Source of the DNA: a bacterium
Lineage (GTDB): Bacteria; UBA8248
Assembly (NCBI GenBank): GCA_965203325.1
Contig: OZ241875.1
Span: forward strand, 1,568,001 to 1,632,000
Reading direction: 5' to 3'
Length of the DNA: 64,000 bases
Shown: one piece after another, positions 31,331-50,793 of the stretch
Numbering within the stretch: the stretch's first letter is position 1
Layout: each line of letters opens with the position of its first letter
Position numbers and translations under genes: made by a program
The notes under the pieces: model-generated
What the model saw: only the letters and a program-made list of their open reading frames with translations
Told to the model about the DNA's origin: nothing
The model's database searches: none

Positions 31331-31537
31331 CTAGCTCTTGAACCGTCTGAGGTTCGTGCTTTTCCCCGGCTCCCGCCGGCTCATCCGCTCCAGCGCCAAG
31401 CCCGCTTCGAGCACCTCCTGGTTGAAGCGAAACTCCTCCCAGGAGCATCTGGCCAGCAGGTGCGGCGGGAGGCCATAGGTCTTCGCCTGGAAATGAATGA
31501 CCGCCAGCAGCTCCTTTCTACGCCTGCGGAAACGCAT
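31331..31537 (-). CDS. Tail assembly chaperone downstream ORF (gpT-like, probably expressed by frameshift)
   Basis: Short ORF overlapping the 3' end of the chaperone in the +1/-2 frame, ...GLPPHLLARCSWEEFRFN...; typical G/GT arrangement. Confidence 0.55.
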   Translation of the reverse strand: MRFRRRRKELLAVIHFQAKTYGLPPHLLARCSWEEFRFNQEVLEAGLALERMSRREPGKSTNLRRFKS

Positions 31538-31910
31538 CGCCTCCCGGCGCGCCCTCCCCGGAAACAGGAGCCGCCGCTTCGTTCTGCATGGCCGTGACGG
31601 CGGTGAAAATGGCGTCGGCATCCGCCGGGGCGAGTTCATGGATGCTCAGTTCATCCGGCAGGCATCGGCCCGGTTCTTTCTCCGTCATCGAGCCGCGCTC
31701 GGGTACGAAGCAGCGCCTCAGGATGCAGTGCACCCATTCCCCGGTAAGCGCATATTGCTCTTCCTCGCCCGCAGCGCCGTTAGCGGCGCCCGCGAAGAGC
31801 TTCGGATACGCCGCCATGTCCAGGAGATTCGGCGCGCGCACGAAACCCTTGAGCCCCGACGGCAGGGCGATGGGCTTGCGTCCATGGTTTCTGTATTCTG
31901 ATATTTCCAC
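31518..31910 (-). CDS. Putative phage tail assembly chaperone
   Basis: 130 aa, directly after the tail tube gene, GTG start with GGGAGG RBS; assignment by synteny. Confidence 0.6.
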   Translation of the reverse strand: MEISEYRNHGRKPIALPSGLKGFVRAPNLLDMAAYPKLFAGAANGAAGEEEQYALTGEWVHCILRRCFVPERGSMTEKEPGRCLPDELSIHELAPADADAIFTAVTAMQNEAAAPVSGEGAPGGDAFPQA

Positions 31911-31974
31911 GATTCCTCCCGTTCGTTCTCGCTGAATGAGACTTGACCAAGGTGAAGAAGAAGCCGCCTTTATT

Positions 31975-32056
31975 GGCGGCTGTTGAAAAACCCCTCGCCG
32001 GGGGCTCCGCCTTTACCCCCCTGTTAAGGGGGGTAGGGGGGCTTTTTCAACCACCC
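31975..32056. repeat. Short copy of the host composite repeat inside the phage-like operon
   Basis: GGCTGTTGAAAAACCCC...TACCCCCCTGTTAAGGGGGGTAGGGGG...TTTTTCAACCACC. Confidence 0.75.
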
Positions 32057-32068
32057 TTATGGCGGAGA

Positions 32069-33208
32069 CTAGGTGAAGACGATGGCTATCTCGTCATCGC
32101 CCGCATCGCGCGCCAGGCGGAAGGGCGCATCGTAGGTCAACAGGCCGTCACGATCCGCGAAGCCCATATCCGCGTACTGGCATTTGGGCGCGGTGATGGT
32201 GCAGATGTTCCCGGCCCTGTGGCCGACCTGCACTTTCAGGGGGAGCCTCGCGCCATCTTCCCAATCCTGGAACACGTCATCGGTGGCCTTGAGCACGGCC
32301 TCGGGATCGAAAGAACCCGAGGGCGCCCGCCCCGTCACCATGGCGTTCACGTGTCCGCCCGATGCGTTGGCGCTTTGACGCAGGACCACCTCGTTGTTCA
32401 TGGCGAAGCGGATGTTCGCCACGTCGAAATGGAAGCCTCCGAACGAAAAACCGCTCATGAGGACGGGTTCGGGCGTCTGCGCATCGTAGGACGCGCCCTC
32501 AGGGAGGGCTGCGTCGCTCACCTCGAAATCGGCCGCCTCGAACTCCCAATCCACCGTGGGAACGCCGTCCAGGGGACAATTGATCGAAAAACTCCCCATG
32601 CAGCCCAGATACATGACCCGCAAACCGTCGATGAACGCCGTCAGGCAGATTCTCGTATAGCCCGATTTATCGGATACGGGCGCATAGGCGACGGAAGCGT
32701 CCTCGACAATGGTTTCCTTCATCGCGCAGGCCTTGAACAGCAATCCATAATCCGGCGCAACGCCCGCTGCGCCTGAGCCGCGCAACTCTGTGGTGAAGGA
32801 GATCTGCGCGGAGCGTTTCCCGGGAATCGAGGGGAAGGGCGAGAGGCTCGCATCCTTCACCGCGCGCTCCAGCTGCTCCACGCTGACCTCGTGGGAGAAA
32901 TTGCCCGCCCGGAACAGTTCCGAGGCCGCCGCCGGACGATCCAGCAGATAGGCCGTTCCTGCAGCGGGGGCGGCGTCCCAGTCGTCGTCCACCGTGAGCG
33001 CCTCCGAGGCCGCGTCGAAACCGCTCACCTTTCTCCTTTGGCCGACGCCCATTCCGCGAATCGTGCGCAGCACCGAGCCGTTCCAGAAATCATCATCCTC
33101 TGAGAGCGCGGCGTCCACCAAGGTGGAGGCGTTGGCGGAATCCGCCACCAGTTCCTTCTCTTCCGTCGCGCCGATTGTCTGCCGATCCATCAAAATCGTA
33201 TCGCCCAT
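32069..33208 (-). CDS. Putative phage major tail (tube) protein
   Basis: ISFTTELRGSG..G.APDYG.L.KAC, GHRAGNICTITAPKCQY, DRDGL...GDDEI motifs typical of siphovirus-like tail tubes; synteny. Confidence 0.7.
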   Translation of the reverse strand: MGDTILMDRQTIGATEEKELVADSANASTLVDAALSEDDDFWNGSVLRTIRGMGVGQRRKVSGFDAASEALTVDDDWDAAPAAGTAYLLDRPAAASELFRAGNFSHEVSVEQLERAVKDASLSPFPSIPGKRSAQISFTTELRGSGAAGVAPDYGLLFKACAMKETIVEDASVAYAPVSDKSGYTRICLTAFIDGLRVMYLGCMGSFSINCPLDGVPTVDWEFEAADFEVSDAALPEGASYDAQTPEPVLMSGFSFGGFHFDVANIRFAMNNEVVLRQSANASGGHVNAMVTGRAPSGSFDPEAVLKATDDVFQDWEDGARLPLKVQVGHRAGNICTITAPKCQYADMGFADRDGLLTYDAPFRLARDAGDDEIAIVFT

Positions 33209-33281
33209 CCCCTGTTCTCCTCCGTCTGTTTTTAGGGGCGAAGGGGCATCCCTCGCCGGATATTGTTCCCTGATTCTCGAA

Positions 33282-33815
33282 TCAATCCCGCCGAATCCGC
33301 TCTATCGCCCGGAGCCTGATCTCGGCGTAATGGCAAAGCACGTTCCCGAATGTTCTCAGTTCAATGAGGTCCACCTGCGGAGGCTGAAGGCGCTCCAGGG
33401 AGCGGACGCGCGGGGCGCCTGATTCATCGAGGAGGCGGAGCGTCCCCTCGTCCCGGAAGCGGTCGCAAATCTCCTCGATCAGATCCTGAAAGGCCGCCTC
33501 GCTGCCCGCCGCGTCCTCGGCGCTCATGATGCCGAACAGCAAGAACGTGTGGGTTCGTCTGCTGAAGCCTGAGGGCGTGAAGCCGCCGGACGCATTCGAG
33601 CCGAGCGATGCGGCCTCCTCCCCTGCTCTCTCGCGCGTCAGCACCCAGCCCCTGATTTGGGCGAGGCCGCCGCCCGCCTCCCACCGGAACAAGTCCAGGT
33701 ATTTTCCCAGGTCGGCCGACCAGCGCTGATAGGCGTGCACCCGCCCCGCCTCCGGCAGGCTCGATATTTCCGCCAAAATGGCGTCGCCGATTTCCCTGTA
33801 TCGTGATTTAGCCAC
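33282..33815 (-). CDS. Putative tail terminator/neck protein
   Basis: GRVHAYQRW, IRGW, SEAAFQDLIEEI, FGNVLCHYAEIRL; position between gp10-like gene and tail tube; GTG start. Confidence 0.55.
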   Translation of the reverse strand: MAKSRYREIGDAILAEISSLPEAGRVHAYQRWSADLGKYLDLFRWEAGGGLAQIRGWVLTRERAGEEAASLGSNASGGFTPSGFSRRTHTFLLFGIMSAEDAAGSEAAFQDLIEEICDRFRDEGTLRLLDESGAPRVRSLERLQPPQVDLIELRTFGNVLCHYAEIRLRAIERIRRD

Positions 33816-34311
33816 CGACTCTCCTCGCAATCTCATCAAGCAGTTCACGAATGCGCTCATCGATTCGGCCCTGGTTATCCTCGAAGGCGCGCGCGAACAT
33901 GCGGCGCGCCGGTATCCCGTGCCGTGCGATTGATCTGGCAACGAGGAAGGACACCCTCTCGATAGACCCATCGGGCGGCCCCAGTTTGTAGGCAACCCAC
34001 CGGTACAGGGACGTACCCTCCCTCCAGGGCGGTATTCCGCCACCCGCCCGGCGTCCGAATTCCACGTACCCGGCGTAAGGGACGCGCGAGGCGACCACGC
34101 CGCGCAACACGCTTGGGTTCTCTCCCTTGATTTCGGTGAAAATGCTGCCCCTGAGGTTCCCGCTCGCGCCGACGGGCGTTCGCGCCATCACCTCGCGCCT
34201 GAGTATTCCGGTGATTTCGGCCACCGCCTCGTGCGCGAGGAGTAAAACCCCCTCCCAAGCGATCTGTGGCACCTCCGGCAAGGCATCAAGCGTTACACTT
34301 CGACGAAACAT
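33808..34311 (-). CDS. HK97 gp10-like phage morphogenesis protein
   Basis: TPVGASGNLRGSI, YAGYVEFGR, VARSIARHG, MFARAF. Confidence 0.75.
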   Translation of the reverse strand: MFRRSVTLDALPEVPQIAWEGVLLLAHEAVAEITGILRREVMARTPVGASGNLRGSIFTEIKGENPSVLRGVVASRVPYAGYVEFGRRAGGGIPPWREGTSLYRWVAYKLGPPDGSIERVSFLVARSIARHGIPARRMFARAFEDNQGRIDERIRELLDEIARRVGG

Positions 34312-34328
34312 TCGCCTCTCCTCTTTGC

Positions 34329-35039
34329 CTAGCGGTCCTTGGATGTGCCGTGCGTGAAGTACTCGCCGCGCGCCAGGGAGAGGAGCGCGTCCCAATCGAG
34401 AGACGCGCCCGCCGGACCCGCCACTTCGCCTTCCTTGCGGCCGAGATGGTTCTGGTATTTGCGCTCGAGTTCCCGGCCCAGGCGCGTGTACTCTCCAGAC
34501 TTGCTCTGGTAGTCCACCGAATCCGCCGCGAGGGTCGGGTTCGAGGACTGGGCGAAGCGGCGGGCCAGAAGGTGACAGCCCTCCGCGGCGGCCAGCCAGG
34601 CCACGGCGGTCAGATCGTTTTCGGGAACGCTCGTGCGCGCATCATCGGCCGTGTGCTTGATCGTGTAGAACAGGCGTAGCGTGTGGCCCATTTGAGGGAC
34701 GAAGTACATGAGCCTGAACCTCGCCGCCGGGGTTCCTTTCGCATAGATGATCCAGGCGCTCCTCCGCAGGTAGGAGGGCTTTCTCTCCCCCTGGGGATAT
34801 TCCACCTCCCGGATGAAGGAGAGGGAATCGTCCCAGTCCTCGGGCAGGGGGAAATCGAACGTCTCGCTATCGCCCGCATAATCGGCGAACGAGACGAGCG
34901 GCCTGTCCTTGCTGTAGCGCGTGAGGGCCGCGTTCACCAGATCGGCGTAGTCCGCCTCCTCGACCCCGAACTCACGGGGCAGCCCGCCCGCCTTCAACAG
35001 CACCTTCACCTCCTTGATGATCGTCTGCCTGCCGGCCAT
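34329..35039 (-). CDS. Putative head-tail connector/adaptor protein
   Basis: 236-aa ORF after the capsid; ALTRYSKDRP, VEYP, ADSVDY motifs; assignment by synteny. Confidence 0.55.
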   Translation of the reverse strand: MAGRQTIIKEVKVLLKAGGLPREFGVEEADYADLVNAALTRYSKDRPLVSFADYAGDSETFDFPLPEDWDDSLSFIREVEYPQGERKPSYLRRSAWIIYAKGTPAARFRLMYFVPQMGHTLRLFYTIKHTADDARTSVPENDLTAVAWLAAAEGCHLLARRFAQSSNPTLAADSVDYQSKSGEYTRLGRELERKYQNHLGRKEGEVAGPAGASLDWDALLSLARGEYFTHGTSKDR

Positions 35040-35082
35040 TTCTCCATTTCTCCTTTGCCTCGCTCACCCGATGCGGGTGGTC

Positions 35083-35424
35083 TCAAGTCTTGAGCGTGAG
35101 CTTGGCCTCGAACGTGAACGAAGCCCCCTCCCCGCCGACGGACCATGCGAGCCTCAGCCAAGGGCCGATGTTCGCGAGCTTGACGAGGGTTTTTCCAACC
35201 GAGGTGATTTCCGCGGATTCGGTATGGACGAAAGCCGCTTCATCGCCCGCCGGACCGGTCTGCACTTCGAAATCAAGCACCGGCGCGACGCCCGATACCG
35301 ACGTCACGTCGATGAACAAGAGCGCCTCGGTGAAGCGGCTCACCTCGAACGCCGTACTGCCTCCCGCGGCGACGCGGGCCGCGGGAGGAGCGAGAACGAT
35401 GGTGTGGGTTCGCCTGTCGGACAT
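35083..35424 (-). CDS. Small beta-rich virion protein (possible head decoration)
   Basis: 113 aa directly after the capsid gene, RBS AGAGGAG; function inferred from position. Confidence 0.5.
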   Translation of the reverse strand: MSDRRTHTIVLAPPAARVAAGGSTAFEVSRFTEALLFIDVTSVSGVAPVLDFEVQTGPAGDEAAFVHTESAEITSVGKTLVKLANIGPWLRLAWSVGGEGASFTFEAKLTLKT

Positions 35425-35456
35425 GGCTTCTCCTCTGAAGGGCAAACGCCGCGCGA

Positions 35457-37535
35457 CTACTCGGGCGCGCCGCGATAGAAGCCGCGGAAGTCCAACACGG
35501 CGCCGCCGTAGACGTGTCTGATCTTGTAGCGAATCTTGTCCGCGCTGAACCCGCTGCCGGCGGCGGGGTTGTCCTCGATGAACAGCTCGGGCTCGCGCAT
35601 GTCGTCCATGAAGCCGATCTCGATGGTGTCCATGAGGCCGGGGTCGGCGACCATGTACCAGTCGTTCGCGTCGGCGAGTTCGGGCACCCACAAGGGCTCC
35701 ACGCCCAGGCGGTTAATGACGCTCGGCTGCGTGGAATTTCCGCCCTCGACGACCTTGACGGGCGACTGGGTGACCTCGAACGCCTCTTCGAGCAACGCCG
35801 TGGGGTGGGCGAGGTATTTGGGCCGCGCCTGCGCCGCCACCTCGACGCCCTCTTCCCCGTAAAACGTCTGCTCGCCCATCGCCTTGATGGCGGCGACGGC
35901 GTTCTCGTACGTGAGCGCGTTCGTGGAGGTGTTCTTGTGGTTCGCGTGGAACAGCCCCTCCCCGTCGTAGATGTCCGCGTTGGACGCCAGGAAATCGAAC
36001 ACGAAGCCGTTCAGGGTGCGCTGGGCCGCGCGGGCGAGGCGCTGGGGGATCATGCGGATCGCGCCCATGTCGTCGTTCTGGATCATCTCCCAGGTGAGGT
36101 CTTCCACGCCGCCGCGCTTGGCAACGGCGTACGTCACCTCCTCATCCGTCGGGGAGGTAAGCGCCGGATAGGCGGCCTGCTCGGCGACCGTCTGCAGATC
36201 GCCGTAACCGCCGACGCGCACCCGGCGGTTCGTGCGGAAATCCTTGACGGGCGCTATGGAGGAGACGATCTTCTTCCACTGGTGGAACCGCTCGTCCCTG
36301 AAATCGCGCAGCATGGCGCGGCGGATCGAATCCCCGAACGCCTCGCCCCACGTGCTCGTCTGCAAGGAGGCGGAGAGGCGGCGCACGCCGTTCCAGTCCT
36401 CGGCGGCGCGGTGGTAGTGGAACGTCTCGGCGAAGAACTGGCGCGGGGTGAGGCGATGACCCGTGAAATCCTGAAACGCCTCGCTCATGAAGCGGTAGGG
36501 CCGCTCGCCGTCGAGGGCCTCCTCGCGCGAACTCCAAAGCCCGTCGAGAGCCGCCCGCTTGCGGTCCGCCTCGTCGCGCATCACCTCGGCACTCGCGCCG
36601 AAACCACGAAGCGCGCCGCTCGCCGTGAGTTTTTCCAGCGTGGCCGCCTCGACCCGGATCGCCTCTTCGATTTCCTCTTCCGTAAAGCTTCCCTCGGCGA
36701 ACCGGTCGCGCATCTTCTCCTGAACGGCTTCGGGAAGTGCCGAGGCCGTGAGTTTCCGGGCGAGCATTCCGTGGGCAGCAGCCCCGGCTTCGGTTCCATC
36801 TTCCATGGCCTTTTCTCCTTTCTTCCTCAGGTCCAGTTCGAGGCCCGCGTCTTCACAGGCCGCGAAGAACTCTTGCGGCGTCCAGGCATCGCCGAGCTTC
36901 TTGCCCGATTCGGGCGCCACGCTTTTGAGTTTCTTTCCGAGTTTCTCGAACATCTTCACCTCCGATTGAGTGGAATGATTGGCGGCGAGACCCAGAATCC
37001 CGCCCCCGAGCTTGCCTTTGTGAACGACATCGACGGAGTGGACCGCCAGAATCTTTTCGAAATGCAAAACGAACGCGTCAGCTTCCTCGCGGAACTCCGC
37101 CTGCGCGAGCACGTCGAAGGAAAAGCCAAAAGGCTCCTCGAGGCCCCGGGCCAGCGCATCGTGCGCCAGCGCCTGGAACCAGGCCGCGGAGCGCGATACC
37201 GCAAACGTGCTCAAAAGCCCCTCCTCGCCCATGCGGACTTCGCGGTGCCAGCCGACCAGGTTCTTGATGTCGGGGCCGCTCGACCCGGTATGGTTCGCAA
37301 AGGCCTGCGCGCCCTCGAACAGGGGAGCGGCCTCGCGCAGAACGTCGCGGGGCAGGAACCACTCCCCGTCCCTCGAGTAGCCGGCCCGCGCGATCAGAAC
37401 GTCGAAATCCCAGGCTTCGCCCGGCGGCTGCGCTTCTTTCGCAGCCGCGCGAATGAGGTGGCCATGCAGCCTTAAAGTATGAGAATCCTTCTGCGCCTCC
37501 GCGCGCGCCCAAATGCGGTTCATCCATTTTTTCAA
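35457..37535 (-). CDS. Prohead protease-scaffold-major capsid fusion (Mu gpT-like capsid domain)
   Basis: N-terminal FANH...LVGW...FGFSFDV protease-like domain; C-terminal DFRTNRR..GGYGDL, KRGG...TWEMIQNDDMGAI, WYMVADP, IEIGF, YKIRHVYG; TTG start with AAGGAG. Confidence 0.82.
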   Translation of the reverse strand: MKKWMNRIWARAEAQKDSHTLRLHGHLIRAAAKEAQPPGEAWDFDVLIARAGYSRDGEWFLPRDVLREAAPLFEGAQAFANHTGSSGPDIKNLVGWHREVRMGEEGLLSTFAVSRSAAWFQALAHDALARGLEEPFGFSFDVLAQAEFREEADAFVLHFEKILAVHSVDVVHKGKLGGGILGLAANHSTQSEVKMFEKLGKKLKSVAPESGKKLGDAWTPQEFFAACEDAGLELDLRKKGEKAMEDGTEAGAAAHGMLARKLTASALPEAVQEKMRDRFAEGSFTEEEIEEAIRVEAATLEKLTASGALRGFGASAEVMRDEADRKRAALDGLWSSREEALDGERPYRFMSEAFQDFTGHRLTPRQFFAETFHYHRAAEDWNGVRRLSASLQTSTWGEAFGDSIRRAMLRDFRDERFHQWKKIVSSIAPVKDFRTNRRVRVGGYGDLQTVAEQAAYPALTSPTDEEVTYAVAKRGGVEDLTWEMIQNDDMGAIRMIPQRLARAAQRTLNGFVFDFLASNADIYDGEGLFHANHKNTSTNALTYENAVAAIKAMGEQTFYGEEGVEVAAQARPKYLAHPTALLEEAFEVTQSPVKVVEGGNSTQPSVINRLGVEPLWVPELADANDWYMVADPGLMDTIEIGFMDDMREPELFIEDNPAAGSGFSADKIRYKIRHVYGGAVLDFRGFYRGAPE

Positions 37536-37631
37536 GAGAAACTCCTTTCTCGCTGTTCTTCCAGAAATTCGATTTCCGGCGAGGGGCCGGAGACCGCCGC
37601 CCGGTGAAACAGGGGCGGGCGCAACGGCGAC

Positions 37632-37684
37632 AATCTAGGACAAGGAGTCTCGAAGGCGGGCCGCGCAAATGCGGGGAAATGCGC
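37632..37684 (-). promoter_or_regulatory. Shared activator-type promoter of the head/tail operon (23-bp motif + N24 + TAGATT)
   Basis: 23-bp motif 37662-37684 identical to 50771-50793; -10-like TAGATT at 37637-37632. Confidence 0.72.
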
Positions 37685-37893
37685 ATTTGGCGTCTTTTTA
37701 TGCGGAATTTTGAATTTGCTAATTGAAAAATTTAAGAAAATGCGGTAAATTACGGAAAATTCTGGAGTTGCGGACGATGCGGGTGGTCCCGGCGTCTAAA
37801 AATTCTGGATACTTCGCCCGCCACCCAGTAAATGCCTGAATTCGCCGCGCCAAAAAGACCGCCCCTTGCACAACACGGACGAGGTTTGATCTC

Positions 37894-39189
37894 ATGTGGG
37901 GCGTTGCTCAACCGGCCTTGAATTTCATCCAGAACCTCTCCTGGAACCATATGCTCGACATCGGGATCATGTGGTTCCTCCTCTACCAGGTCTACATTCG
38001 CTTCAAGGGCACCCAGGCGATGCGCCTTCTCGTGCGCGTGTTCGCGGTGTGGCTCATCTATCTCGCCTCCCAGGCGGCGGGTCTGCACCTGACCTCGTTC
38101 CTGCTCTGGGCCATCTGGATCGCCGTGCTCATCCTGTTTCTCATCAATTTCCACGGAGAGATCCAGAAGATATTCTTTCAACTCAACCCGGTGCGCAGAA
38201 TCTCCATCCTGCTGCGCCGAGCGATGCGCATCCGCCTGCCGGACGAGAGCGTCGCCACCATCGCCGAATCCGCTTTTTCGCTCGCGGCCAAGCACATGGG
38301 CGCCATCATCGTCATGGAGCACCGGGATTTGACCGACTCCCTGCTGAGGAGCCCGGGCGAGGAGATCGAGGCGGACATCCAGCCGGCGCTTCTCGATTCC
38401 ATCTTCTTCAAGGGAGCGCCCTACCACGACGGCGCCGCCGTCGTTCGCGAGAACAAGGTCTCGCGCGTGGGATGCGTTTTGCCCCTTTCGGAGAACCGCG
38501 CCCTGCCGCCCGAGTTCGGAACGCGCCACAGGGCGGCGGTCGGCATCACGGAGCGATGCGACGCCCTGGCGATCGTCATCTCGGAAGAACGCGGAGAGGT
38601 CACCTGCGTGGAAGGCGGCAACGCAAAGGCGGTCCAAGACGAAGATGAACTCGCCTCGTGGCTCACTACGCGGCTGCGCGCGGCCCGCGAGGCGGGGCAG
38701 ACGAAAGGGCGCATCTCGTTCCGCCACGTTTTCGTGAACTGGCGGCCCAAGCTCGCCGCGCTGGCCGCCGTGATATTCCTCTGGTCGCTCGGGGGACAGG
38801 AGAACCAGAATCCGCAGAATTTCTTCCCGCAGCTCGAAAGCAAGGTGGAGGAGGAATTCCGGGTCCCGGTCCATTACTACAACGTTCCGAGCGGCGTCAC
38901 CCTTCCCGAAAATGCGGCGAAAGAAGTCAAAATCCGTATCAGGGGCAGGCGCGATCTCCTGAATTTCATCGACGCCACCCGTCTGCGCGTGAACGTGAAC
39001 CTCGCCAAAATGACGCCCGGCGCGCATTCGCGCACGCTGTCGGGCCGCGACATCGACCTGCCGAACGGCCTTGAGTTCCTGAGCGCGGAGCCCAAGGTCC
39101 TGGATTTGAATCTCGCCAAGGCGCCGTCGCCGGAGAAAATGACGAAATCGAGCGCCTCCACCGAAACGCCGGGGTCCTCGAACTTTTAA
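37894..39189 (+). CDS. cdaA: Diadenylate cyclase CdaA fused to a C-terminal YbbR (CdaR-like) domain
   Basis: 3 N-terminal TM helices, HDGA and GTRHRAA DAC motifs, SEERG; then NWRPKL..TM and a YbbR-like VPV..YNVP..VKIRIRG domain. Confidence 0.85.
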   Translation: MWGVAQPALNFIQNLSWNHMLDIGIMWFLLYQVYIRFKGTQAMRLLVRVFAVWLIYLASQAAGLHLTSFLLWAIWIAVLILFLINFHGEIQKIFFQLNPVRRISILLRRAMRIRLPDESVATIAESAFSLAAKHMGAIIVMEHRDLTDSLLRSPGEEIEADIQPALLDSIFFKGAPYHDGAAVVRENKVSRVGCVLPLSENRALPPEFGTRHRAAVGITERCDALAIVISEERGEVTCVEGGNAKAVQDEDELASWLTTRLRAAREAGQTKGRISFRHVFVNWRPKLAALAAVIFLWSLGGQENQNPQNFFPQLESKVEEEFRVPVHYYNVPSGVTLPENAAKEVKIRIRGRRDLLNFIDATRLRVNVNLAKMTPGAHSRTLSGRDIDLPNGLEFLSAEPKVLDLNLAKAPSPEKMTKSSASTETPGSSNF

Positions 39190-39259
39190 GGCCTCTCTTT
39201 TCAGTTGCTTGCGTTTTCGGCCACGCGAAAATTTGCTTTTTCAGAACAAAATACCGATA

Positions 39260-39823: not shown

Positions 39824-39957
39824 AACCCTCCCCCCTTTTGGATGAGACCGCACAACAAGAATCAAGGAATCTTTTTGCGGGAAGAATCCCGCCCGCATCT
39901 TTGCTAGAATCCACCGCACCGACAAATAAACCACAACGTAATCGAGGAGTCATCTTC

Positions 39958-40455
39958 ATGCCGGAAAGACCGAACACGCCGCAAGTCATCCTCCGCCACA
40001 TCCAGGGCACGCAGCTTCAGATGTTCACCACAACGGGCAAGCACTCCTACGTGCTCGACGAGCCCGAAACCCGGGGCGGCACGGACCTCGCCGCCACGCC
40101 GTTCGAGTTCTTCATCGCAGGGCATGCGGGCTGAGGGCTCTACACGCTGCTGGGAGCAGCGAAGGCCAAGGGCATCCAGATCGACGACGTGGAAGTCCAT
40201 GCGGAGTTCAAGCGGAACATATCGCCAAAGTTTCACGCGGATTACCACGCGGACCCCGAGCGGAGAAAACTCTCCATCGGCGTCATCCGCACGAGCTATT
40301 ACATCCACGGCGACGTAACGGAAGAACAAAAGGCGGCGCTTCTGGATGAACTCGAAAACTGCCCCATCCACAACACGCTGATGACACCGCCCAAGCTCGA
40401 GGAGCGAATCGTCGTTCTGGAGAAGGACGAAACCGCGCCCAAAGAGATTTCATAA
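39958..40455 (+). CDS. OsmC-like selenoprotein (Sec at TGA 40132-40134)
   Basis: DEP..RGGTD...TPFE..AGHAG-UGA-GLYT... continues in frame to CPIHNTL; UGA sits at the conserved first Cys; hairpin just downstream. Confidence 0.82.
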
Positions 40456-43413: not shown

Positions 43414-43429
43414 CAAAGAGGATATTTGC

Positions 43430-44431
43430 ATGAGACACGGCATTTCATTCAGACCGCCCGATACGGATTCGTTCGCCCGCTGGTGCAAGTGCGCGGAAGA
43501 ACTCGGCTTCGATGCGGTATTCATCCCCGATACCCAGTCTCTTTACCGGGAGGTCTACGTCTCGTGCGCGATATGCGCGATGGAGACGAGCGAGATCATC
43601 TTCGGCCCATGCGTCACGAATCCCGTCACGCGGCACCCGGCGGTGGCCGCGAGCGCCATCGGCACCATCAGCGAGCTATCGGGCGGGCGCGCCTTCTGGG
43701 GGATCGCCACGGGTGACAGCGCGGTGCTGAACCTGGGTCTGAGGCCCGCCAAACTCGCCGAGATGCGCGAATACGTCCTCGCCGTGCGGGGCATGCTCGA
43801 AGAAGGAAGCGCGCAGTTCAAAGGGAACGACGCCCGGTTGAGCTGGCACAAATCCCACGTGCCCATCCACATCGCCGCCGAAGGCCCCAAGACGCTGCGC
43901 CTCGCGGGCGAGGTGGCCGACGGCGTCATCATCGGAACCGGCCTCATCCCCGAAGTCATCGCGGACACGCTCTCCTTCATCGACGAGGGCGCCCAAAAGT
44001 CCGGCCGAAGGGTGGAGGACCTGGACCTCTGGTGGCTGGTGGACGCCCACGTAGACGGGGACGGCGAACGGGCGCGGGAGGACATCCGCACCGCCCTCGC
44101 CGCAAGCGCGCATCATTCCTTCGCCTTCACGATGGAGAACAAGCGCATCCCCCAAGAGCTCGAATCCGGCATCCGCGCGCTGAGGGACGGGTACCAGACT
44201 TCGGAGCACGGCTTCATGGATAAATCCAACAATGCGGCGCTCGTCGATGAGTACGGCTTGAGAGACTACCTGGCCGATAGATTCGCCATCGTCGGCACGC
44301 CCGAAGAATGCCGGAAAAGACTCGAAGACCTCGAAAACCTGGGTGTCAGGGGGCTCCGCATCAACAACAACCTGCCCGACAGGACAGTCTTCATGAACGC
44401 CTGGGCGAAGGAGGTGCGGGGGATTGGGTGA
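43430..44431 (+). CDS. LLM-class oxidoreductase (Mer-like, probably F420-dependent), paralog 2
   Basis: Same motifs as the adjacent paralog (VTNPVTRHP, GIATGDSAVLNLG, AAEGPKT). Confidence 0.85.
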   Translation: MRHGISFRPPDTDSFARWCKCAEELGFDAVFIPDTQSLYREVYVSCAICAMETSEIIFGPCVTNPVTRHPAVAASAIGTISELSGGRAFWGIATGDSAVLNLGLRPAKLAEMREYVLAVRGMLEEGSAQFKGNDARLSWHKSHVPIHIAAEGPKTLRLAGEVADGVIIGTGLIPEVIADTLSFIDEGAQKSGRRVEDLDLWWLVDAHVDGDGERAREDIRTALAASAHHSFAFTMENKRIPQELESGIRALRDGYQTSEHGFMDKSNNAALVDEYGLRDYLADRFAIVGTPEECRKRLEDLENLGVRGLRINNNLPDRTVFMNAWAKEVRGIG

Positions 44432-44490
44432 TTTGCGACACCAAAGCGATGCAACAAAGCAAACCTGAGTTGTTTTCTATAGCAAATTGC

Positions 44491-44961
44491 CTATATCGGC
44501 AGAACCCCTTGGTTTGAACGTGGTTCATGAATAGGAAAACCTGTCAACGCCTCAAATTTTGAGAGCCCGGCATCATATGTATGGAACTCTTTCGCTTCTG
44601 CATAGATTGCAGTTGCCAAATGCACGGCATCCGCAGGCTTCAAGCTCCACCCACGAGAGATGCCTTCTCTCATTAGACGCCTCGCATCTCGTTGCAAGCG
44701 TTCATGTACTTCCACCAACGTAATGGTACGTCGATCCATCCACATCGAATCTATTTTCGCCTCAAGCGCGGGGTCCAGTGCTTGCTTATCCTTTTCTATC
44801 GCGCCATACGCCACCTCGGTAATAGACCACATGGATGTCACAATACGACACTCGTCTTTACGCGACCTTGAAAGCAAATCGTCTAAGGTGGGTAACCTAG
44901 TCTCTATGCCGTTGATATAGGAGAGAAAAACATCGGCATCCCAATAGTACGCATCAGCCAT
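44491..44961 (-). CDS. PIN-domain (VapC-like) protein
   Basis: YYWDADVF, SITEV, LKPADAVHLATA, FHTYD acidic PIN motifs. Confidence 0.82.
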   Translation of the reverse strand: MADAYYWDADVFLSYINGIETRLPTLDDLLSRSRKDECRIVTSMWSITEVAYGAIEKDKQALDPALEAKIDSMWMDRRTITLVEVHERLQRDARRLMREGISRGWSLKPADAVHLATAIYAEAKEFHTYDAGLSKFEALTGFPIHEPRSNQGVLPI

Positions 44962-45724
44962 CACGCAACCGCATAATAGTAACTTCCGGCAATTCTGCGT
45001 CCGGCTTCAACGGCAAAATTGCGCGCGCTTGCGTGTAGTCTCCTTCCTCCATAATTGGTGTAATTTTACTGACTTGCCGCACTGCTATAGGATGTCCATC
45101 CGTCGGATCGCGACTCACCAATCCTTCCACGATAGCGTGTTTTCCCCAAACTTCTCTCATGAGGTTTTCCTGGCCGGATTGCAAGTAACACGATACAGGT
45201 CGGTCATTCAGAGCGTCATAGAGAGTGAATCGCAACATGTTTCGCTTTGTTAATGTCTGAACTTCTCCCTCTACGGCGCCAAAGGCCACTGCAATAACAT
45301 TTTCTGGCAGATTCATCATCTTGTCCGCTACTTTCGGCTTTCGAGTTGGAGGGTTATGTAAGATGACCGTTTCCTCTTGTGTCTCAAATCGGACTCGTTT
45401 GACGCCGTTTCCGACCAAGCGCCCAAGTTTCATGGCTGGAGCGGAGACTTTCCGCCCACGATTAATCCGGACATTTTCTTTAAGTGCCCTGCCAACATCA
45501 TTGTATCCCCGAACAACCCGCTCGACCCGTTCCGATTGAGGGCTATATCCTTTAATAGTCGCTAATGCGCTCCCAGGCTGAAGATCTTCGATCCTCCACT
45601 CGATACCGCCTCCCTCCTCTACCGTCAGCGCACCGATGAGGCTGTCCAACGACTTTACCGCCGTTGCAAACGTCTCAAGAGTGACATCCCCCTCCAACAT
45701 CAGCGTAATTGTGTCAGAAGCCAT
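44954..45724 (-). CDS. Hypothetical protein coupled to the PIN gene (possible antitoxin partner)
   Basis: Overlaps the PIN start; AT-richer than flanks; C-terminal OB-like segment inferred. Confidence 0.65.
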   Translation of the reverse strand: MASDTITLMLEGDVTLETFATAVKSLDSLIGALTVEEGGGIEWRIEDLQPGSALATIKGYSPQSERVERVVRGYNDVGRALKENVRINRGRKVSAPAMKLGRLVGNGVKRVRFETQEETVILHNPPTRKPKVADKMMNLPENVIAVAFGAVEGEVQTLTKRNMLRFTLYDALNDRPVSCYLQSGQENLMREVWGKHAIVEGLVSRDPTDGHPIAVRQVSKITPIMEEGDYTQARAILPLKPDAELPEVTIMRLRDG

Positions 45725-45966
45725 GACTTGCCCTTTGGAGTCTTTGGGAGGATCCACAATTGGTAGATATCTTCAAACAAGACATCACCATGAATCAACC
45801 TAAGGCCTCCATTTGGGAGTGTCAATCACTTGCGCAGCACGCTCTGGAACACATCCAGCCGAAAAACTCCCCCTTCCCCTCTCCCCGCCGCTTCGGTTAG
45901 AATGGCTTGAAATGATCGAAACGAGTGAATTCGACCTCCCCGAAAAACCTCGTACAGGAGGATGAC

Positions 45967-46521
45967 ATGAGCGAAATGACGAAGGAAAAGGAAAAGATTC
46001 TCGTCTATGAACCCGTGGCGGAGGCGCCGGGCGCGAGCGCCGTCATGGCCGCGCGGCCCGAGAGCCTAAACGGCAAGAGCGTGGGCCTCATCAACAACAC
46101 CAAGGATTTCACGGATGAGATTTTCGACGTGATGGGCGCCGCGCTCGAAGAGCAGTTCCCCGGTGTGCGCGTCGTGCGCTACCGGAAAGAATCCGTGAGC
46201 GGCGCATCGCCCGCCTTGATGGAGCAGGTGGAAGGAGAGTGCGACGCCGTTGTTTCCGCACTCGGCGACTGAGGGTCATGCACGTCGTGGAGTATCCACG
46301 ACAGCGTCGCTTTAGAGAAAAGAGGGCTGGCCACGGTCACGGTCGTCACCGACGCCTTCGAGACCTACGCCAAGCAACTCACCAAGCTGCACAAGATGAG
46401 CGGGCTTCCCCTCGTCACGCTGCCCCACCCCATCGCGGGCAGAAAGCGCGAGGAGGTGGACGAGATGTCGGCGAGAGCGAGCGCGCATCTGGCGTCCGCC
46501 CTCACGCAGGCGAGCGCTTGA
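45967..46521 (+). CDS. UGSC-family selenoprotein (Sec at TGA 46270-46272)
   Basis: CDAVVSALGD-UGA-GSCTSWSIHD..LEKRG..T...PHPI in one frame; strong RBS; hairpin GTCGTGG-AGTAT-CCACGAC downstream. Confidence 0.88.
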
Positions 46522-46528
46522 TATCGGC

Positions 46529-47629
46529 ATGGACGCGCCAGAGCCCGCCCGCCAGATAGCGCTCGACCAAGACGCAGGCGCGATATACGAGCACTTCTAC
46601 GAGGAGGGCTGGACGGACGGGCTGCCCGTCATCCCGCCGACCGAGGAGCGCGTCGCGGAAACCTTGCGCTTCACGGACTATGCGCCGCATGACGTCATCG
46701 CCAACGTCCCGCCCAGAAACGCCCCGGCCACGGTCGAGGTCATCGCCATCAACGCCGTGATGGCGGGCTGCAGACCCGAATACCTGCCTGTTTTGATCGC
46801 CGCAGTGCAAGCCATGACGGAACCCGCCTACAACCTCTACGGCCGTCAGACGACGACGCATCCGGGCGCGCACCTGATGATCGTCCACGGGCCGGTTCGA
46901 AACGAACTCGAGGTCAACTGCCGCCAGAACGTCTTCGGCCAGGGCTGGCGCGCCAACGCGACGCTGGGCCGCGCGGTGAGGCTCCTGATGATGAACGCAG
47001 GCGGCGGCATCCCCGGCGTGACGGACATGGCCACCCACGGGCATCCGGGGAAATACGCCTACACCATCGGCGAGGACGAGGAGGGCAGCCCCTGGCCCGC
47101 CTTTCATGTGGATAGAGGCTTCGCGCCAGATACTTCCGCCGTCACCATGCTCTGCGCCGAGTCGCCCCACAACGTGAACGACCTGGTGAGCAAGACGCCC
47201 CACAAATACCTGGGCACGGCGGCTTCGGCCATGAGCCATTTAGGTGCGAACGGCGTCTACCGGAGCGGGCTTCCGAGCGAGCAAATGCTCGTCCTGACGG
47301 CAGAGGCCGCCACGTGGCTTTCGGATCAGGGGTGGTCGAAGGCCGACGTTTCGCAATTCATCTTCGAGAACGCGCGCCAGCCGATTCGCCTGATGCGCGA
47401 CCGGGGCGGCTTCGACATGACGCCACTCGCCCCTTTCGTGAATCTCGAAGAAGACGAGGACATGGCCCCCATCGTCCCGAGGCCCGAAGACATCCTCATC
47501 GTCATAGCGGGCGGCCACGGCCGCCACATGCAGGCCGTCTTGACGGCGAGCTACAACCTGAGCGTCACCAGGGCGATCACCAGAAAAGACGGAACGCCGA
47601 TTGGATCGGTAAGGGAGTTTGTGGAGTAG
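46529..47629 (+). CDS. Conserved protein typically paired with or fused to UGSC (seleno)proteins
   Basis: GWTDGLPVIPPTEERV, AINAVMAGCRPEY, RANATLGRA, GHPGKY. Confidence 0.75.
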   Translation: MDAPEPARQIALDQDAGAIYEHFYEEGWTDGLPVIPPTEERVAETLRFTDYAPHDVIANVPPRNAPATVEVIAINAVMAGCRPEYLPVLIAAVQAMTEPAYNLYGRQTTTHPGAHLMIVHGPVRNELEVNCRQNVFGQGWRANATLGRAVRLLMMNAGGGIPGVTDMATHGHPGKYAYTIGEDEEGSPWPAFHVDRGFAPDTSAVTMLCAESPHNVNDLVSKTPHKYLGTAASAMSHLGANGVYRSGLPSEQMLVLTAEAATWLSDQGWSKADVSQFIFENARQPIRLMRDRGGFDMTPLAPFVNLEEDEDMAPIVPRPEDILIVIAGGHGRHMQAVLTASYNLSVTRAITRKDGTPIGSVREFVE

Positions 47630-47637
47630 AGAGCCCC

Positions 47638-48993
47638 CTACCCCTCCAGGTTCATGCCGAACTGCCCCGCGAGGTGGGTGATGAGCTTGCCTGCGGCGTC
47701 ATCGCTCATCCAGCCGCGCGCGGTGGCCGTTTCGAGCGCCGTGCTAACGCGCAAAAGCGCCTCGGACATCTTCTCGGTGTCGCGCACGGAGATATCCGGC
47801 AGAACGGGCGAGACGCCCGAGCGCAGCGCCTCCTCGGGCAGCGCGCCCGCGCGATGGGCTTCTTCGAGCTGCTTCTCAGCCATAGCTTGCAAGATATGGC
47901 GCACGGTGCGCTGGCGGCGCGTCATCTTCTTCAAGGTGGGCTGATCCATCGACTCGGCCGACGCGCGGTTCACGTCCTCCCCCTGGGCGAACCAGTGGGA
48001 AGGAACGCCTACGCCGCCGAGCAGCAGGCCCCGCATCATCTTGGCGACCCCCTGCGCGCCGGACTCGCCTCCTTTCAAGTCGGGCGAGACGGCCCGCCAC
48101 TCCTCTTTTTCGTTGTGAACGCGCACGCTCGAGGGCTTGGGCGCGACGCCGTTCTCGGCGAGCCACTCGGCTATCTTGTCGGGGCCGGCGCCTTTCAAGG
48201 TGACGTCGTAGATGAAGCTGTTCTGCAGGCGCGCGCGCTCCACGGCATCGAAGATGAAGCGCTCATAGGTATCTATCCAGTCGATGGCGGCGAGCAAGTC
48301 CGAAGCCCCGCGCGCGGCGTCGCTCGCCTTGTTGATCTGGAACAGGAACGCCTCTCCGTCCGTGAAGCGCTCGCGCTCCCGCCGGGCGGAGGCGCTCAGA
48401 TAACCGCGCGGGTCGCCGCCCAAGACCGTCTTGATTCGCTTGCCCTTGCGCGCCGCACCGCCCGGCTCCCGGGCGCGCAGGACGACCCCTATCGGCAGGG
48501 CGCAGTTGTCCGGGTCCGTCACCACCTCTTCGATCAGGCGGGGGCTGACGTAGCCCAGCCGGACGCGCCCCTCGAAGCGCGAGACGGCGACGGGCAGCAA
48601 GAGTTCGCCGAATATGCCGAGTTCAGAGACCAGCCGCTCGAAGCGGATGTCCATCTGGTTCACGGGGTCGGCCCAGAACGCCTTCACGGCGTTTAATGCG
48701 CGCTCATCCTCCCCGTGCCAGCTCACCCCCTCGCCCACGACGTGATCCGTCACGATCTCGATGAGGCGCTGGCCCATGAGGTTCGTGAGCCATAATTCAT
48801 ACGCTAAAGCCTGCATGCGCGCGTGGGTGTAGGGAGACACCCCGCTCCGCCCCTCGCCGAGGGGCCGCCAGATTTTCTCGTCCGGATCGATCGCCGCGCT
48901 CGTTCGCCCGGTACGCTGCGCGGCCTCCCCTTTTCTCTTGAGTTCCGTCTTCCGCCCGGGAACCTTCACCCTCTTTGCACTCTCCATTCTCAT
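47638..48993 (-). CDS. Putative phage portal protein
   Basis: 451 aa after the terminase; ELGIFGEL, RGASDL, GVPSHWF...NRASA..M..PT.K...RQ; synteny. Confidence 0.72.
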   Translation of the reverse strand: MRMESAKRVKVPGRKTELKRKGEAAQRTGRTSAAIDPDEKIWRPLGEGRSGVSPYTHARMQALAYELWLTNLMGQRLIEIVTDHVVGEGVSWHGEDERALNAVKAFWADPVNQMDIRFERLVSELGIFGELLLPVAVSRFEGRVRLGYVSPRLIEEVVTDPDNCALPIGVVLRAREPGGAARKGKRIKTVLGGDPRGYLSASARRERERFTDGEAFLFQINKASDAARGASDLLAAIDWIDTYERFIFDAVERARLQNSFIYDVTLKGAGPDKIAEWLAENGVAPKPSSVRVHNEKEEWRAVSPDLKGGESGAQGVAKMMRGLLLGGVGVPSHWFAQGEDVNRASAESMDQPTLKKMTRRQRTVRHILQAMAEKQLEEAHRAGALPEEALRSGVSPVLPDISVRDTEKMSEALLRVSTALETATARGWMSDDAAGKLITHLAGQFGMNLEG

Positions 48994-49637
48994 CTCCTCT
49001 TGAGCATCCGTTTGTTAAAAGCCTGCGGCGTCACCGTTCCCCCGGCGATGGGGGCCAGCATGCCCTCGCTCTGCGCCAGGGATTCGGCCAGCCGCGCATA
49101 GGCGCAGGCGAAGCCGAAGTGGTTCTCGTTTCGCTCATACGCCAGCACCGTCTCCCCGGTGGAGCGGATGCGCGGCCTTTTCCTCAAATTCATCAGGTGG
49201 CGCTCCACCTCGGCGAGTAGCGCCTCCTCCCCGGTGTCCCTGGGACTCGGCAGCAGGACCCGCCCGGCCCCCTCGTGAAACTCCTCCACGAGGTGATCGA
49301 GCAGGTCCTCTCGGTTCATCCGCACGTGGCGGCGCTCGACGCCCAGGAACGAGACGTCCCTGGTCTGCATCTCCCCCTCGGTGTGCCGCCAGATGAAGCC
49401 GCCCTCGGGGTTCAGGTCGTAGACCGCGCGCGCTGCCTGGGTGTGGGGGCCGCCGTCTATGACGAACGCTTCCACCCCGAGACCCGAGAACACGGCGCGG
49501 CACCGCTCGATGAGGCGCTCTATCGGCGGCGCCTCGAAATAAATCCACCTGGCGGGCCGGCCCTCCTCGCGCTCGCGCACCGCGAGGGCGCAGCGGTCGC
49601 CCGTATCGATTCCACAGAAGCGATAGTTCGCGCTCAT
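48990..49637 (-). CDS. Terminase large subunit, nuclease domain (separate gene)
   Basis: FCGIDTG RNase H-like motif, VIDG, ENHFGFACAY; ATGA overlaps on both sides. Confidence 0.65.
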   Translation of the reverse strand: MSANYRFCGIDTGDRCALAVREREEGRPARWIYFEAPPIERLIERCRAVFSGLGVEAFVIDGGPHTQAARAVYDLNPEGGFIWRHTEGEMQTRDVSFLGVERRHVRMNREDLLDHLVEEFHEGAGRVLLPSPRDTGEEALLAEVERHLMNLRKRPRIRSTGETVLAYERNENHFGFACAYARLAESLAQSEGMLAPIAGGTVTPQAFNKRMLKRR

Positions 49638-50692
49638 GCCGGGACCTCCGCCAGGCGATACGGCGCGGCGTCACGCAGCTTCCTGAGCAGTTCAGGAGAG
49701 ATAGGCCGGGTATCGCCCGCATCGGGGATGGCGAGGGCCGAGCAGCGAAAGCGCGCCTTCTCACTCGGAAGAGAGGCAGCGGCCCATTTCGCCACGACCC
49801 GGTCGAGCCGAACCGCGCCGACCGCAAGCTGGGAGAGGCGATAGCTCCTGTGCCGGGGTCTCACGCACGCGGCTTTCCACCGCCCTGCTCCCTTCTCGAG
49901 CGCGCCGCCGCATTCCGGGCAGACGAGGCCATTTGCACACAGTATCTCCGGCCAGTGCTCCTCCAGCACGCTCTCGGTGCGGCACGTCGGGCATCTCACA
50001 TGCCAGCGCCTGCGGTCCCCCGCCTCGTACATGGCGTGAATGCCCGCACCGGGAGTTCTGCCGACAGCCAGGTTGAGCGTAAGAGCCAGGGGCGAGGCGT
50101 CGATGCGGTCGTTCGACCATTTGAGGTTGTCCGGCGGAAGGTCGTCCACCTCGTCGCGGACAAGCACGTCGAGCGGGATGGATATGGCGTTGCCGATGTC
50201 CCTGAGACCCAGGATGTAGAGAAAACGCGAGCCCCCGGGGCCGGGGAACTCCTTGAGACCCTTGGGGGATGCGCCACGGTACTTTCCGTCGCGCATGATC
50301 GAGGCGATACTTTCGTTTCGAATCACCGGGCGCACGCGCGTCTGGTCGAAGCGGTCCGCGAAATCCTGATCGGGCAGAAAATAGCCCACGTTCAGGCGGT
50401 GGACGATGACGCAATAGAGCGCAAAACCGATGGCGAGGGTGGTCATGCCCACCTGCGCGCCCTTCAGGACGCTGATGGTCCGATCGGGCGCCCGGCAATT
50501 TATAATCTCATCGAGCGCGGCGGCGATCTCCAGAAGCGCCTCTCTGCCTTTGAAGGTGAACGCGCCGGTGTCGGTCGACATCTCGCCCGTCAGAAACCGG
50601 GCCAGCCCGCGCGCCTCGCCCGGAAATCGCGGCGCGCCGCCGGCGGCGAGGTCCATACCGGGCACCCGGATGATTTTCAGGGACTTTCGCAC
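49634..50692 (-). CDS. Terminase large subunit, GpA-like ATPase domain
   Basis: VLKGAQVGMT (GpA-type P-loop), YFLP, VLVRDEVD (Walker B), GDRRRWHVRCPTC..CPECG zinc ribbon; GTG start. Confidence 0.8.
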   Translation of the reverse strand: MRKSLKIIRVPGMDLAAGGAPRFPGEARGLARFLTGEMSTDTGAFTFKGREALLEIAAALDEIINCRAPDRTISVLKGAQVGMTTLAIGFALYCVIVHRLNVGYFLPDQDFADRFDQTRVRPVIRNESIASIMRDGKYRGASPKGLKEFPGPGGSRFLYILGLRDIGNAISIPLDVLVRDEVDDLPPDNLKWSNDRIDASPLALTLNLAVGRTPGAGIHAMYEAGDRRRWHVRCPTCRTESVLEEHWPEILCANGLVCPECGGALEKGAGRWKAACVRPRHRSYRLSQLAVGAVRLDRVVAKWAAASLPSEKARFRCSALAIPDAGDTRPISPELLRKLRDAAPYRLAEVPA

Positions 50693-50740
50693 CGGGACTC
50701 CTCCCTCCCAAGGATGCCGCGCGCATCCTCACGAGGGAGG

Positions 50741-50793
50741 AATATAGGGGATGGGGCCTGTGAGCCATGACGCGCAAATGCGGGGAAATGCGC
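50741..50793 (-). promoter_or_regulatory. Shared activator-type promoter of the terminase/portal operon (23-bp motif + N24 + TATATT)
   Basis: 23-bp motif 50771-50793 identical to 37662-37684; -10-like TATATT at 50746-50741 at identical spacing. Confidence 0.72.

Follow-up and report, generated by a model that had tools for sequence, protein, structure and literature searches.

Are phage structural genes that stand in two separate places of a bacterial chromosome the ruins of a prophage, parts of a living phage, or a particle that the host has taken over? This question is raised by a stretch of 64,000 nucleotides (GenBank assembly GCA_965203325.1, contig OZ241875.1, positions 1,568,001 to 1,632,000; GTDB lineage UBA8248), called the window here, for which a preliminary description had proposed a new gene transfer agent (GTA). 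The genome is numbered G000, the window being G000:C1:1568001-1632000 of its one contig (4.39 Mb, 60.4% GC), and the relatives are numbered G001 onward. We found that the two operons of the window belong to a dispersed set of five loci, and the comparison of gene content, position and substitution suggests that this set is probably a functional, host-regulated and domesticated GTA-like particle system of phage origin, inherited vertically. The more specific proposal, towards which the balance tips slightly, is an independently exapted GTA, a new viriform lineage in a family labelled Nitrospinota/Tectomicrobia, that dispersed from one cluster into five loci, has its tandem-repeat promoter class in common with host genes and packages DNA with a split, translationally coupled terminase.

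The operons were checked by open reading frame (ORF) listing, by a codon-usage gene call and by Pfam and PHROGs scans, and both proved to be intact phage-type operons on the minus strand, as first described: locus 1 (31331-37535) with capsid, neck and tail-tube genes, and locus 2 (47638-50692) with terminase and portal genes. About 10 kb of host genes separates them, and ordinary host genes (cof and cupin, the cdaA set, amtB) were found on the flanks and between the operons. The host-like composition and ribosome-binding sites (RBSs) reported earlier were confirmed, with operon GC of 0.62-0.67, like the neighbours, and RBS-like purine runs upstream of the operon starts. The claim that phage accessory genes are missing nearby stood for integrase, repressor and replication genes, none of which was detected among the called window ORFs or beside the other three loci, but not for the small terminase (TerS) and the lysis cassette, which lie 1.7-4.7 kb past the window end. 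The set does not have the makeup of a complete temperate prophage, in which integrase, att sites, lysogeny and replication genes adjoin the structural genes: neither att sites nor any lysogeny or replication module next to those genes were found in the window or beside loci 3-5.

The remaining modules had been expected elsewhere in the genome, and a tape measure-like gene with tail-tip genes, a small terminase, a holin and an endolysin were detected there. Locus 3, on the plus strand 461 kb from locus 1, was found by searching the genome with the proteins of prophages in two relatives (G027 and G032), and loci 4 and 5 were located by following the promoter motif. Taken together, the five loci contain 23 ORFs in about 18 kb of DNA, spread over 530 kb of the chromosome (Table 1). 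The first (368 aa) and third (403 aa) ORFs of locus 3 are homologous to tail-tip genes of the G027 and G032 prophages, and the 403-aa gene resembles TipJ/Phage-tail_3 clusters by Atlas features, which we use as a lead only. A PDB sequence-profile search with 13-row alignments of the 403-aa and Dit-like proteins gave nothing meaningful (best E 0.35), and the AlphaFold models of these two proteins (mean pLDDT 42 and 37) were too poor for a fold search. The 559-aa ORF, which resembles a tape-measure protein (TMP), is Ala/Gly-rich, and tape-measure PHROGs match it weakly with their C-terminal parts. Its C-terminal end shares 34% identity (E 4e-6) with a 485-aa ORF of G048, a complete genome of another genus, where this ORF lies between the chaperone-position ORFs and the Dit-like gene, and we take the 559-aa ORF for the tape measure. 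A search of the G000 genome with the tape-measure families PF10145 and phrog_991 gave no match, and the gene was recognised through the G048 cluster. In G007, G022, G014, G001 and G006 an additional 0.1-2 kb separates the TMP-like gene from the 127-aa gene, and the TMP-like gene carries a promoter motif for itself; part of the genus thus seems to transcribe it as a unit of its own.

Table 1. The five loci of the particle system and the adjoining host genes. Positions are those of the window, or of contig C1 where so marked; numbers after family names are E values; the last column gives the range of the ratio of nonsynonymous to synonymous substitution rates (dN/dS).
Feature	Position	Strand	Evidence and remarks	dN/dS
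Locus 1 promoter element	37667-37683	-	Tandem CGCATTT-N3-CGCATTT, 29 nt, TAGATT (37632-37637); start codon 37535	
Protease/scaffold-capsid fusion, 692 aa	35457-37535	-	PF25209 E 4e-44; phrog_29592 E 2e-130; phrog_133; phrog_4523 'major head and protease'	0.12-0.21
120-aa ORF after capsid gene	35083-35445	-	No Pfam/PHROGs match; conserved 10/10; head-neck role suggested by position only	0.10-0.34
236-aa head/neck ORF	34329-35039	-	No family match	0.09-0.24
HK97-gp10-like neck protein, 157 aa	33808-34281	-	PF04883 5e-6; phrog_5 'tail completion or Neck1' 1e-15	raised, see text
177-aa ORF between neck and tube	33282-33815	-	No family match; conserved 10/10; terminator-like role suggested by position only	0.16-0.34
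Tail tube, 379 aa	32069-33208	-	PF18906 1e-11; phrog_290 2e-20	0.09-0.19
130-aa ORF, tail-chaperone position	31518-31910	-	Named by position only	0.10-0.19
68-aa ORF	31331-31537	-	Overlaps end of 130-aa ORF, +1 frame	0.02-0.20
Locus 2 promoter element	50776-50792	-	Same tandem CGCATTT repeat, 29 nt, TATATT (50741-50746)	
Large terminase (TerL) ATPase half, separate 352-aa ORF	49634-50692	-	GpA-type PF05876 4.5e-20; phrog_675 1.7e-48, profile positions 26-345	0.19-0.25
TerL nuclease half, separate 215-aa ORF	48990-49637	-	phrog_675 positions 360-550, 4.5e-12	0.13-0.21
Portal, 451 aa	47638-48993	-	phrog_10963 3.9e-46	0.08-0.15
Locus 3	C1:1106772-1113634	+	In order: motif, Dit-like 368 aa, 177 aa, J/TipJ-like 403 aa, 313 aa, 231 aa, 127 aa, TMP-like 559 aa	0.08-0.27, except 231-aa ORF (see text)
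Locus 4	C1:1633736-1634836 (ORFs to 1634640)	-	Motif, 110-aa ORF, TerS-like 191 aa (phrog_426 3.5e-9; Mu Gp27 PF11985)	TerS 0.10-0.18
Locus 5	C1:1635595-1636905 (ORFs to 1636741)	-	Motif variant, DUF1508 ORF, lysozyme 137 aa (PF00959), holin 141 aa with three transmembrane segments (PF11351 'GTA_holin_3TM'; phrog_3427 2.9e-24)	Lysozyme 0.15-0.22; holin 0.03-0.16; DUF1508 ORF raised, see text
Host side of locus 1			cof/F420 operon and cupin	
Host genes between loci 1 and 2			cdaA, deaminase, dehydrogenase, two luciferase-like monooxygenases, two selenoproteins	
Host side of locus 2			amtB	
Host genes cofC, cofE, cdaA			Used for comparison of dN/dS	0.13-0.24

The 236-aa ORF of locus 1 is 32% identical to a gene of the G032 prophage that comes after the capsid region. 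The tail chaperone named in the preliminary description corresponds to two small ORFs in that position, but the name is positional, and no slippery heptamer for a frameshift was found in these ORFs (31518-31910 and 31331-31537). Since the 68-aa ORF is in the +1 frame and the heptamer is missing, no claim of a G/GT pair is made.

The terminase of locus 2 is GpA-like, as had been proposed (PF05876), and its ATPase and nuclease halves occupy two ORFs, whereas the phrog_675 profile describes a single protein of 576 positions. The ATPase, nuclease and portal ORFs are joined by ATGA stop-start overlaps, the portal ATG overlapping the nuclease stop. The split, the (A/G)TGA overlap of ATPase stop and nuclease start, and an RBS-like GGCGGAGG or close variant upstream are kept in 12/12 genomes, and the two halves are likewise separate ORFs in G048. 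What we take to be Walker-type motifs and a nuclease 'GIDTGD' segment are legible in the TerL sequences. The gene arrangement suggests that the TerL ATPase and nuclease are separate, translationally coupled polypeptides.

An identical 23-nt motif, GCGCATTTCCCCGCATTTGCGCG, is present on the minus strand upstream of both operons (37662-37684 and 50771-50793). The common motif of the preliminary description is therefore real, but it is not private to the operons, the core CGCAWTT-N3-CGCAWTT having 66 copies in the genome against 0.06 expected. A TAnnnT hexamer follows 28-30 nt downstream in 33 of the 66 copies, and from this spacing the tandem repeat would lie at about -42 to -58, like an activator site. 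One conserved promoter type stands in front of all five loci. The motif with its 29 nt and TAnnnT is kept upstream of loci 1 and 2 in 10/10 relatives while the 29-nt spacer drifts, and the element is kept at locus 3 (11/11), locus 5 (9/9) and locus 4 (7/9; not found within 3 mismatches in G001 and G006). The G048 cluster has a co-varying form, CGAATTT-N3-CGAATTT, 29 nt, TAnATT, at three promoters; its exact form has 7 copies in that genome, and no TerS or lysis-gene homolog adjoins the other sites. From a conserved promoter with a drifting spacer we infer, with good support, co-regulation of the loci by a host factor, in a regulon that they do not have to themselves. We know of no described element that the motif resembles.

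Copies of the motif often lie in repeated contexts (e.g., C1:867633, 1414043, 1875290 and 3432474), among which are AT-rich 'TATCGAAATTTATCGAATT' stretches. Downstream of some copies a stretch of about 60 nt recurs that begins with TATCGTGCGCGCG and gave no match in Rfam. Arrays of 3-5 CCCCGCAWWT units were detected after the TMP-like gene (C1:1113634-1113720) and upstream of the capsid promoter (37700-37790).

The loci are fixed in the chromosome. The gene order from cofD to amtB, including about 8-12 kb of host genes between capsid and portal, is the same in 10/10 fetched genomes of the genus, and locus 3 is syntenic in 11/11, with a hexapeptide transferase on one side, accompanied in some by an M23 peptidase, and variable DNA on the other. 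Orthologs in conserved host neighbourhoods, which the preliminary description had named as a check, were thus found for loci 1, 2 and 3, and the recurrence of the arrangement in independent assemblies indicates that it is not a misassembly. The genome G048 has a contiguous cluster of portal, capsid, neck, tube, chaperone-position ORFs, TMP-like, Dit-like, 177-aa and 403-aa genes, a few kb from the same cof-cupin genes as in G000; its TerL lies 10 kb from the cluster, amid host-type genes and a remnant of an insertion sequence (IS). No integrase or replication gene was found in the 52 kb examined there. The most economical history starts with a single ancient insertion next to the cof operon, followed by loss of all non-structural modules and then by dispersal of the remaining ones in the lineage to which the genus of the window belongs. 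The small ORF 50814-50936 (-), just upstream of the terminase promoter, matches the first 41 positions only of DUF520 (YajQ; E 6.5e-7), and may be what is left of a host gene that was cut short by the arrival or a move of the block.

Of the 22 other species in the genus, 20 have a single copy each of capsid, TerL ATPase, 403-aa tail gene and TerS. An intact portal occurs in 19/22 (G015 has it in three pieces, G009 has a remnant and G008 lacks it), and the holin is present in 18/22. None of the six markers is intact in G008 (99% complete) and G009 (95% complete), where all five loci are affected. The cof-cupin genes of both genomes directly abut cdaA and the terminase-portal block is gone, G009 keeping a 41-aa portal remnant. 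This remnant, together with G009 host proteins as close to G000 as those of the carriers, indicates secondary loss of the whole set. Patchiness in close relatives, which would have counted against domestication, is limited to these two of 22 species, with the marker of every locus missing. At larger distance the capsid was detected in 34/44 genomes of the order (G000 included), in 32/41 other species of the family and in 3/5 genomes of genus g2. The capsids of the family have diverged to about 70% identity, with open frames kept in most species. Database homologs form a block at 50-97% identity, followed by a drop to 39% or less, and the members of the block are labelled Nitrospinae, Nitrospinota or Tectomicrobia by their sources. 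Runs labelled sponge metagenome contain near-identical DNA, between 24 and 50% of sampled locus 1 words being present in them. Expression was also considered from a metatranscriptome, in which one RNA library (X23) gave contigs 85-99% alike covering 21/30 locus 1 bins; these may derive from DNA and, being contigs, say nothing of expression level, and they were not counted.

The dN/dS values were computed by the Nei-Gojobori method for G000 against eight relatives (loci 1 and 2 and host genes) or seven (TerS, holin and lysozyme). Most genes of the system are under purifying selection (dN/dS about 0.03-0.27), like the host neighbours (Table 1), and the expectation of dN/dS well below 1 was borne out for them, though not for three ORFs with raised values. 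Co-diversification with the host was analyzed from protein distances in 12 genomes (66 pairs) with nine host genes and 2000 permutations. The distances of loci 1, 2 and 3 follow those of the host with r of 0.98, 0.95 and 0.97, and 0/2000 permutations were as high. The correlation is also seen between unlinked regions (locus 3 and the host genes of loci 1-2, r 0.965; locus 1 and the host genes of locus 3, 0.935; host and host, 0.925), and loci 1, 2 and 3 evolve at mean rates of 1.06, 0.95 and 1.45 relative to the host genes. Fixed sites, co-diversification, dN/dS and the further modules together support the multi-locus domesticated particle system first proposed.

The gene content suggests a way in which such a system could work. 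A host factor would bind the tandem CGCATTT repeats, centred near -50, and switch the loci on together; proheads would assemble on the portal, and the fused protease would mature them; the heads would be filled with host DNA by the two-piece TerL and the TerS-like protein; and tails would be built from the parts of locus 1 and locus 3. The holin and endolysin would then lyse the producer cell, and the particles would deliver DNA to related cells. A domesticated particle could instead be kept for a use other than transfer, as a PBSX-like killer, as a means of controlled lysis by which DNA or goods are set free within the host, or as a supply of capsids and tails for satellites. The same domestication evidence fits these uses, packaged DNA and delivery being read from the genes, and the lysis cassette is part of the co-occurring set. 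Purifying selection on capsid, portal, TerS-like protein and both TerL halves, however, points to DNA packaging itself as the selected function, which killing or lysis alone would not need, and no satellite-like island was seen beside any locus. PBSX-type defective prophages are similar in being chromosomally fixed and phage-like. PBSX packages host DNA and lyses its producer, and it has one contiguous locus, its own repressor and a contractile tail, whereas the present system has five loci, no repressor was seen at them, and its tube and TMP suggest a tail that does not contract. We consider a non-transfer use unlikely and continue to prefer the GTA-like reading.

Several observations weigh against this preferred reading. 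With 66 core copies, the promoter motif is neither private to these operons nor GTA-specific; many copies stand before ordinary genes (acyl-CoA dehydrogenase, mnmA, MFS transporter, acetyl-CoA synthetase), and three integrases lie downstream of copies elsewhere in the genome, not at the loci. Several ORFs of locus 1 and locus 3 have no family assignment, and the putative role of the 559-aa ORF as tape measure comes from weak matches. The FastTree splits in common with the host tree are 8/9 for locus 2, 5/9 for locus 1 and 4/9 for locus 3, the conflicts concerning the attachment of the long G019/G001/G006 branch and a few short internal branches. The congruence asked for by the preliminary description was thus found in the distances but in part of the tree splits only; it is broad, not complete, and some exchange of particle genes between species may have occurred. 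Raised dN/dS was detected in the neck gene 33808-34281 (0.36-0.74), the 231-aa ORF of locus 3 (0.26-0.77) and the DUF1508 ORF (0.46-0.73). A capsid match is absent in 9/41 other species of the family, and genus g22, with genomes of about 2 Mb, has the capsid in 0/4. Damage was also found in single lineages: in G012, the closest relative, a 1.78-kb IS that carries a transposase-like ORF of 498 aa interrupts the tube gene; in G015 the portal is in three pieces with a TGA and the holin has no match; TerS is in two frames in G003, the TerL ATPase is in two frames in G048, and G023 has fragments only. Some of this damage may be assembly errors. The damage in lineages and the losses of the whole set indicate that the system is dispensable.

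The same breaks and losses (in G012, G015, G003, G048, G023, G008, G009 and genus g22) and the three ORFs with raised dN/dS are what scattered dead prophage remains, functionless and kept by chance or linkage, would leave behind. Such remains would not be expected to keep open frames in most species of the family despite capsid divergence to the level given above, to have dN/dS equal to that of host genes, or to conserve promoters while the spacers drift. The markers of five unlinked loci are, moreover, missing together from the same two species, which is unexpected for remnants, and we regard dead remains as very unlikely. An active temperate phage with a merely rearranged genome is hardly credible and is already contradicted by genome geometry: a complete structural and lysis set and relatives in ordinary prophages of other families would fit it, but no integrase, repressor or replication gene adjoins the loci, distances of 10 kb to 530 kb separate them, they are single-copy and stand at fixed positions (10/10 and 11/11 species), they co-diversify with the host, and the capsid query found no close relative in IMG/VR.

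Class-level capsid and portal relatives at 34-42% identity are found in other families, in ordinary contiguous prophages of G027 and G032, and complete prophages carry only these distant relatives, not the orthologs, an outcome opposite to the one that would have spoken against domestication. Both prophages have a one-piece TerL (phrog_2). That of G027 also carries an endolysin, methyltransferases and a tape measure at the canonical position, and that of G032 a methyltransferase and tail-fibre-like genes. The capsid of the window is 36-38% identical to these two capsids, and the closest viral capsid in the phage collection is that of Microcystis phage Mae-JY22 (31% identity over 94% of the length); IMG/VR gave no close relative with the capsid as query. 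The temperate siphoviruses (the prophages of G027 and G032, and Mae-JY22) have in common with the present system the protease-capsid fusion, a homologous portal, a phrog_290-type tube and tail-tip genes. They are contiguous elements, whereas the system here is dispersed and has no non-structural modules, and the one-piece phrog_2 TerL of G027 and G032 contrasts with the split GpA-type TerL here.

Among known GTAs, RcGTA uses other families for capsid, TerL and TerS, and it is not known to have PF25209, PF05876 or the tail-tube family PF18906. Compared by families as generally known, the PF25209 protease-capsid fusion, the split GpA-type TerL and the Mu Gp27-like TerS set the present system apart. 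Families unlike those of RcGTA and a closest viral capsid at such a distance point to an independent domestication. The holin belongs to PF11351, the Pfam family named for GTA release and the only one in common with the families known for RcGTA. The host lineage differs too, being labelled Nitrospinae, Nitrospinota or Tectomicrobia, whereas RcGTA is found in Alphaproteobacteria.

PMC9662315 classifies three GTA groups and describes GTAs by caudovirus-like structural proteins, full endogenization, often at multiple loci, and mostly vertical, co-diversifying inheritance. It further gives own genes that are not all packageable in one particle, packaging of mostly random host DNA, delivery to other cells and host-controlled production (PMC9662315). 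The present system encodes caudovirus-like proteins that could build a caudovirion-like particle, is endogenized in five loci, each between conserved host genes, and shows vertical, co-diversifying inheritance in its fixed sites (10/10 and 11/11), in the cof-cupin site of another genus and in the host correlation (r 0.95-0.98). Since the loci are spread over as much as 530 kb, the full set would not fit into one head of ordinary size. RcGTA and the RcGTA-like elements (Rhodogtaviriformidae) resemble it, by the features described there, in a siphovirus-like head-tail set without integration and replication genes, several loci, a separate lysis cassette, vertical inheritance and loss in some lineages (PMC9662315). 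BaGTA (Bartonella), BhGTA/VSH-1 (Brachyspira), Dd1 and VTA are likewise presented there as caudovirus-derived, endogenized, vertically inherited and located in more than one locus (PMC9662315); their hosts are other ones, and the likeness is one of description, not of sequence. In a literature search for GTAs with Tectomicrobia, Nitrospin or sponge symbiont, no report for this lineage was found by title and abstract among the matches listed.

A handful of independent GTA origins are recognised, and each new one tests whether the domestication of phages into host-run DNA exchange recurs. The family offers a comparative series, with one genus contiguous at a fixed site, another dispersed into five loci and some species that have lost the whole set. 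The conserved promoter element could lead to the regulator, and a large terminase that is split by nature may help to explain how packaging becomes less specific. If the particles do move DNA among uncultured symbionts, this would be an undescribed route of gene flow there.

Other features of the window were analyzed as well. The 366-aa gene 46529-47629 (+), convergent with the portal gene, has no family match and is strongly conserved (dN/dS 0.04-0.11); it is kept in G009, where the particle genes are lost, and is therefore probably a host gene outside the system. The regions fetched from G006 and G008 showed no copy of it. The low-GC island 44431-45925 (about 52% against about 63%) has a PIN-domain ORF (44491-44964) and an overlapping 267-aa ORF without family match, and it looks like a variable insertion of toxin-antitoxin type. 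Among the 10 fetched carrier genomes both ORFs were detected in G012 only, with the 267-aa ORF also in G014; G009, which has lost the particle genes, has both, the PIN ORF in pieces.

Two selenoprotein genes between the operons have in-frame TGA readthrough, an OsmC-like gene at 39955-40455 (+) (GHAGUGLYT) and a UGSC-family gene at 45925-46520 (+) (GDUGSC). A tRNA-Sec gene at C1:1876711-1876803 (L070:1911-2003; Rfam 75.9 bits) is consistent with them. The ORFs 39904-40371 (-) and 46312-46488 (-), with dN/dS above 1 at very low dS, were rejected as antisense artefacts of these selenoprotein genes. Rfam scans of the window, of five motif-bearing regions and of a conserved stretch past the window end detected only tRNA-Cys, tRNA-Sec and two sub-threshold microRNA matches.

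The long plus-strand ORFs of 60805-63975 (+), at the window end, have no family match and are probably high-GC artefacts. The phase of substitutions in relatives indicates that the real gene is on the minus strand (L038:539-2317 (-)), at least over about 63550-64100, and the plus-strand ORF 63658-63975 (+) was rejected as antisense to it. From its translation, this minus-strand gene presumably encodes a CocE/NonD-type hydrolase-like protein.

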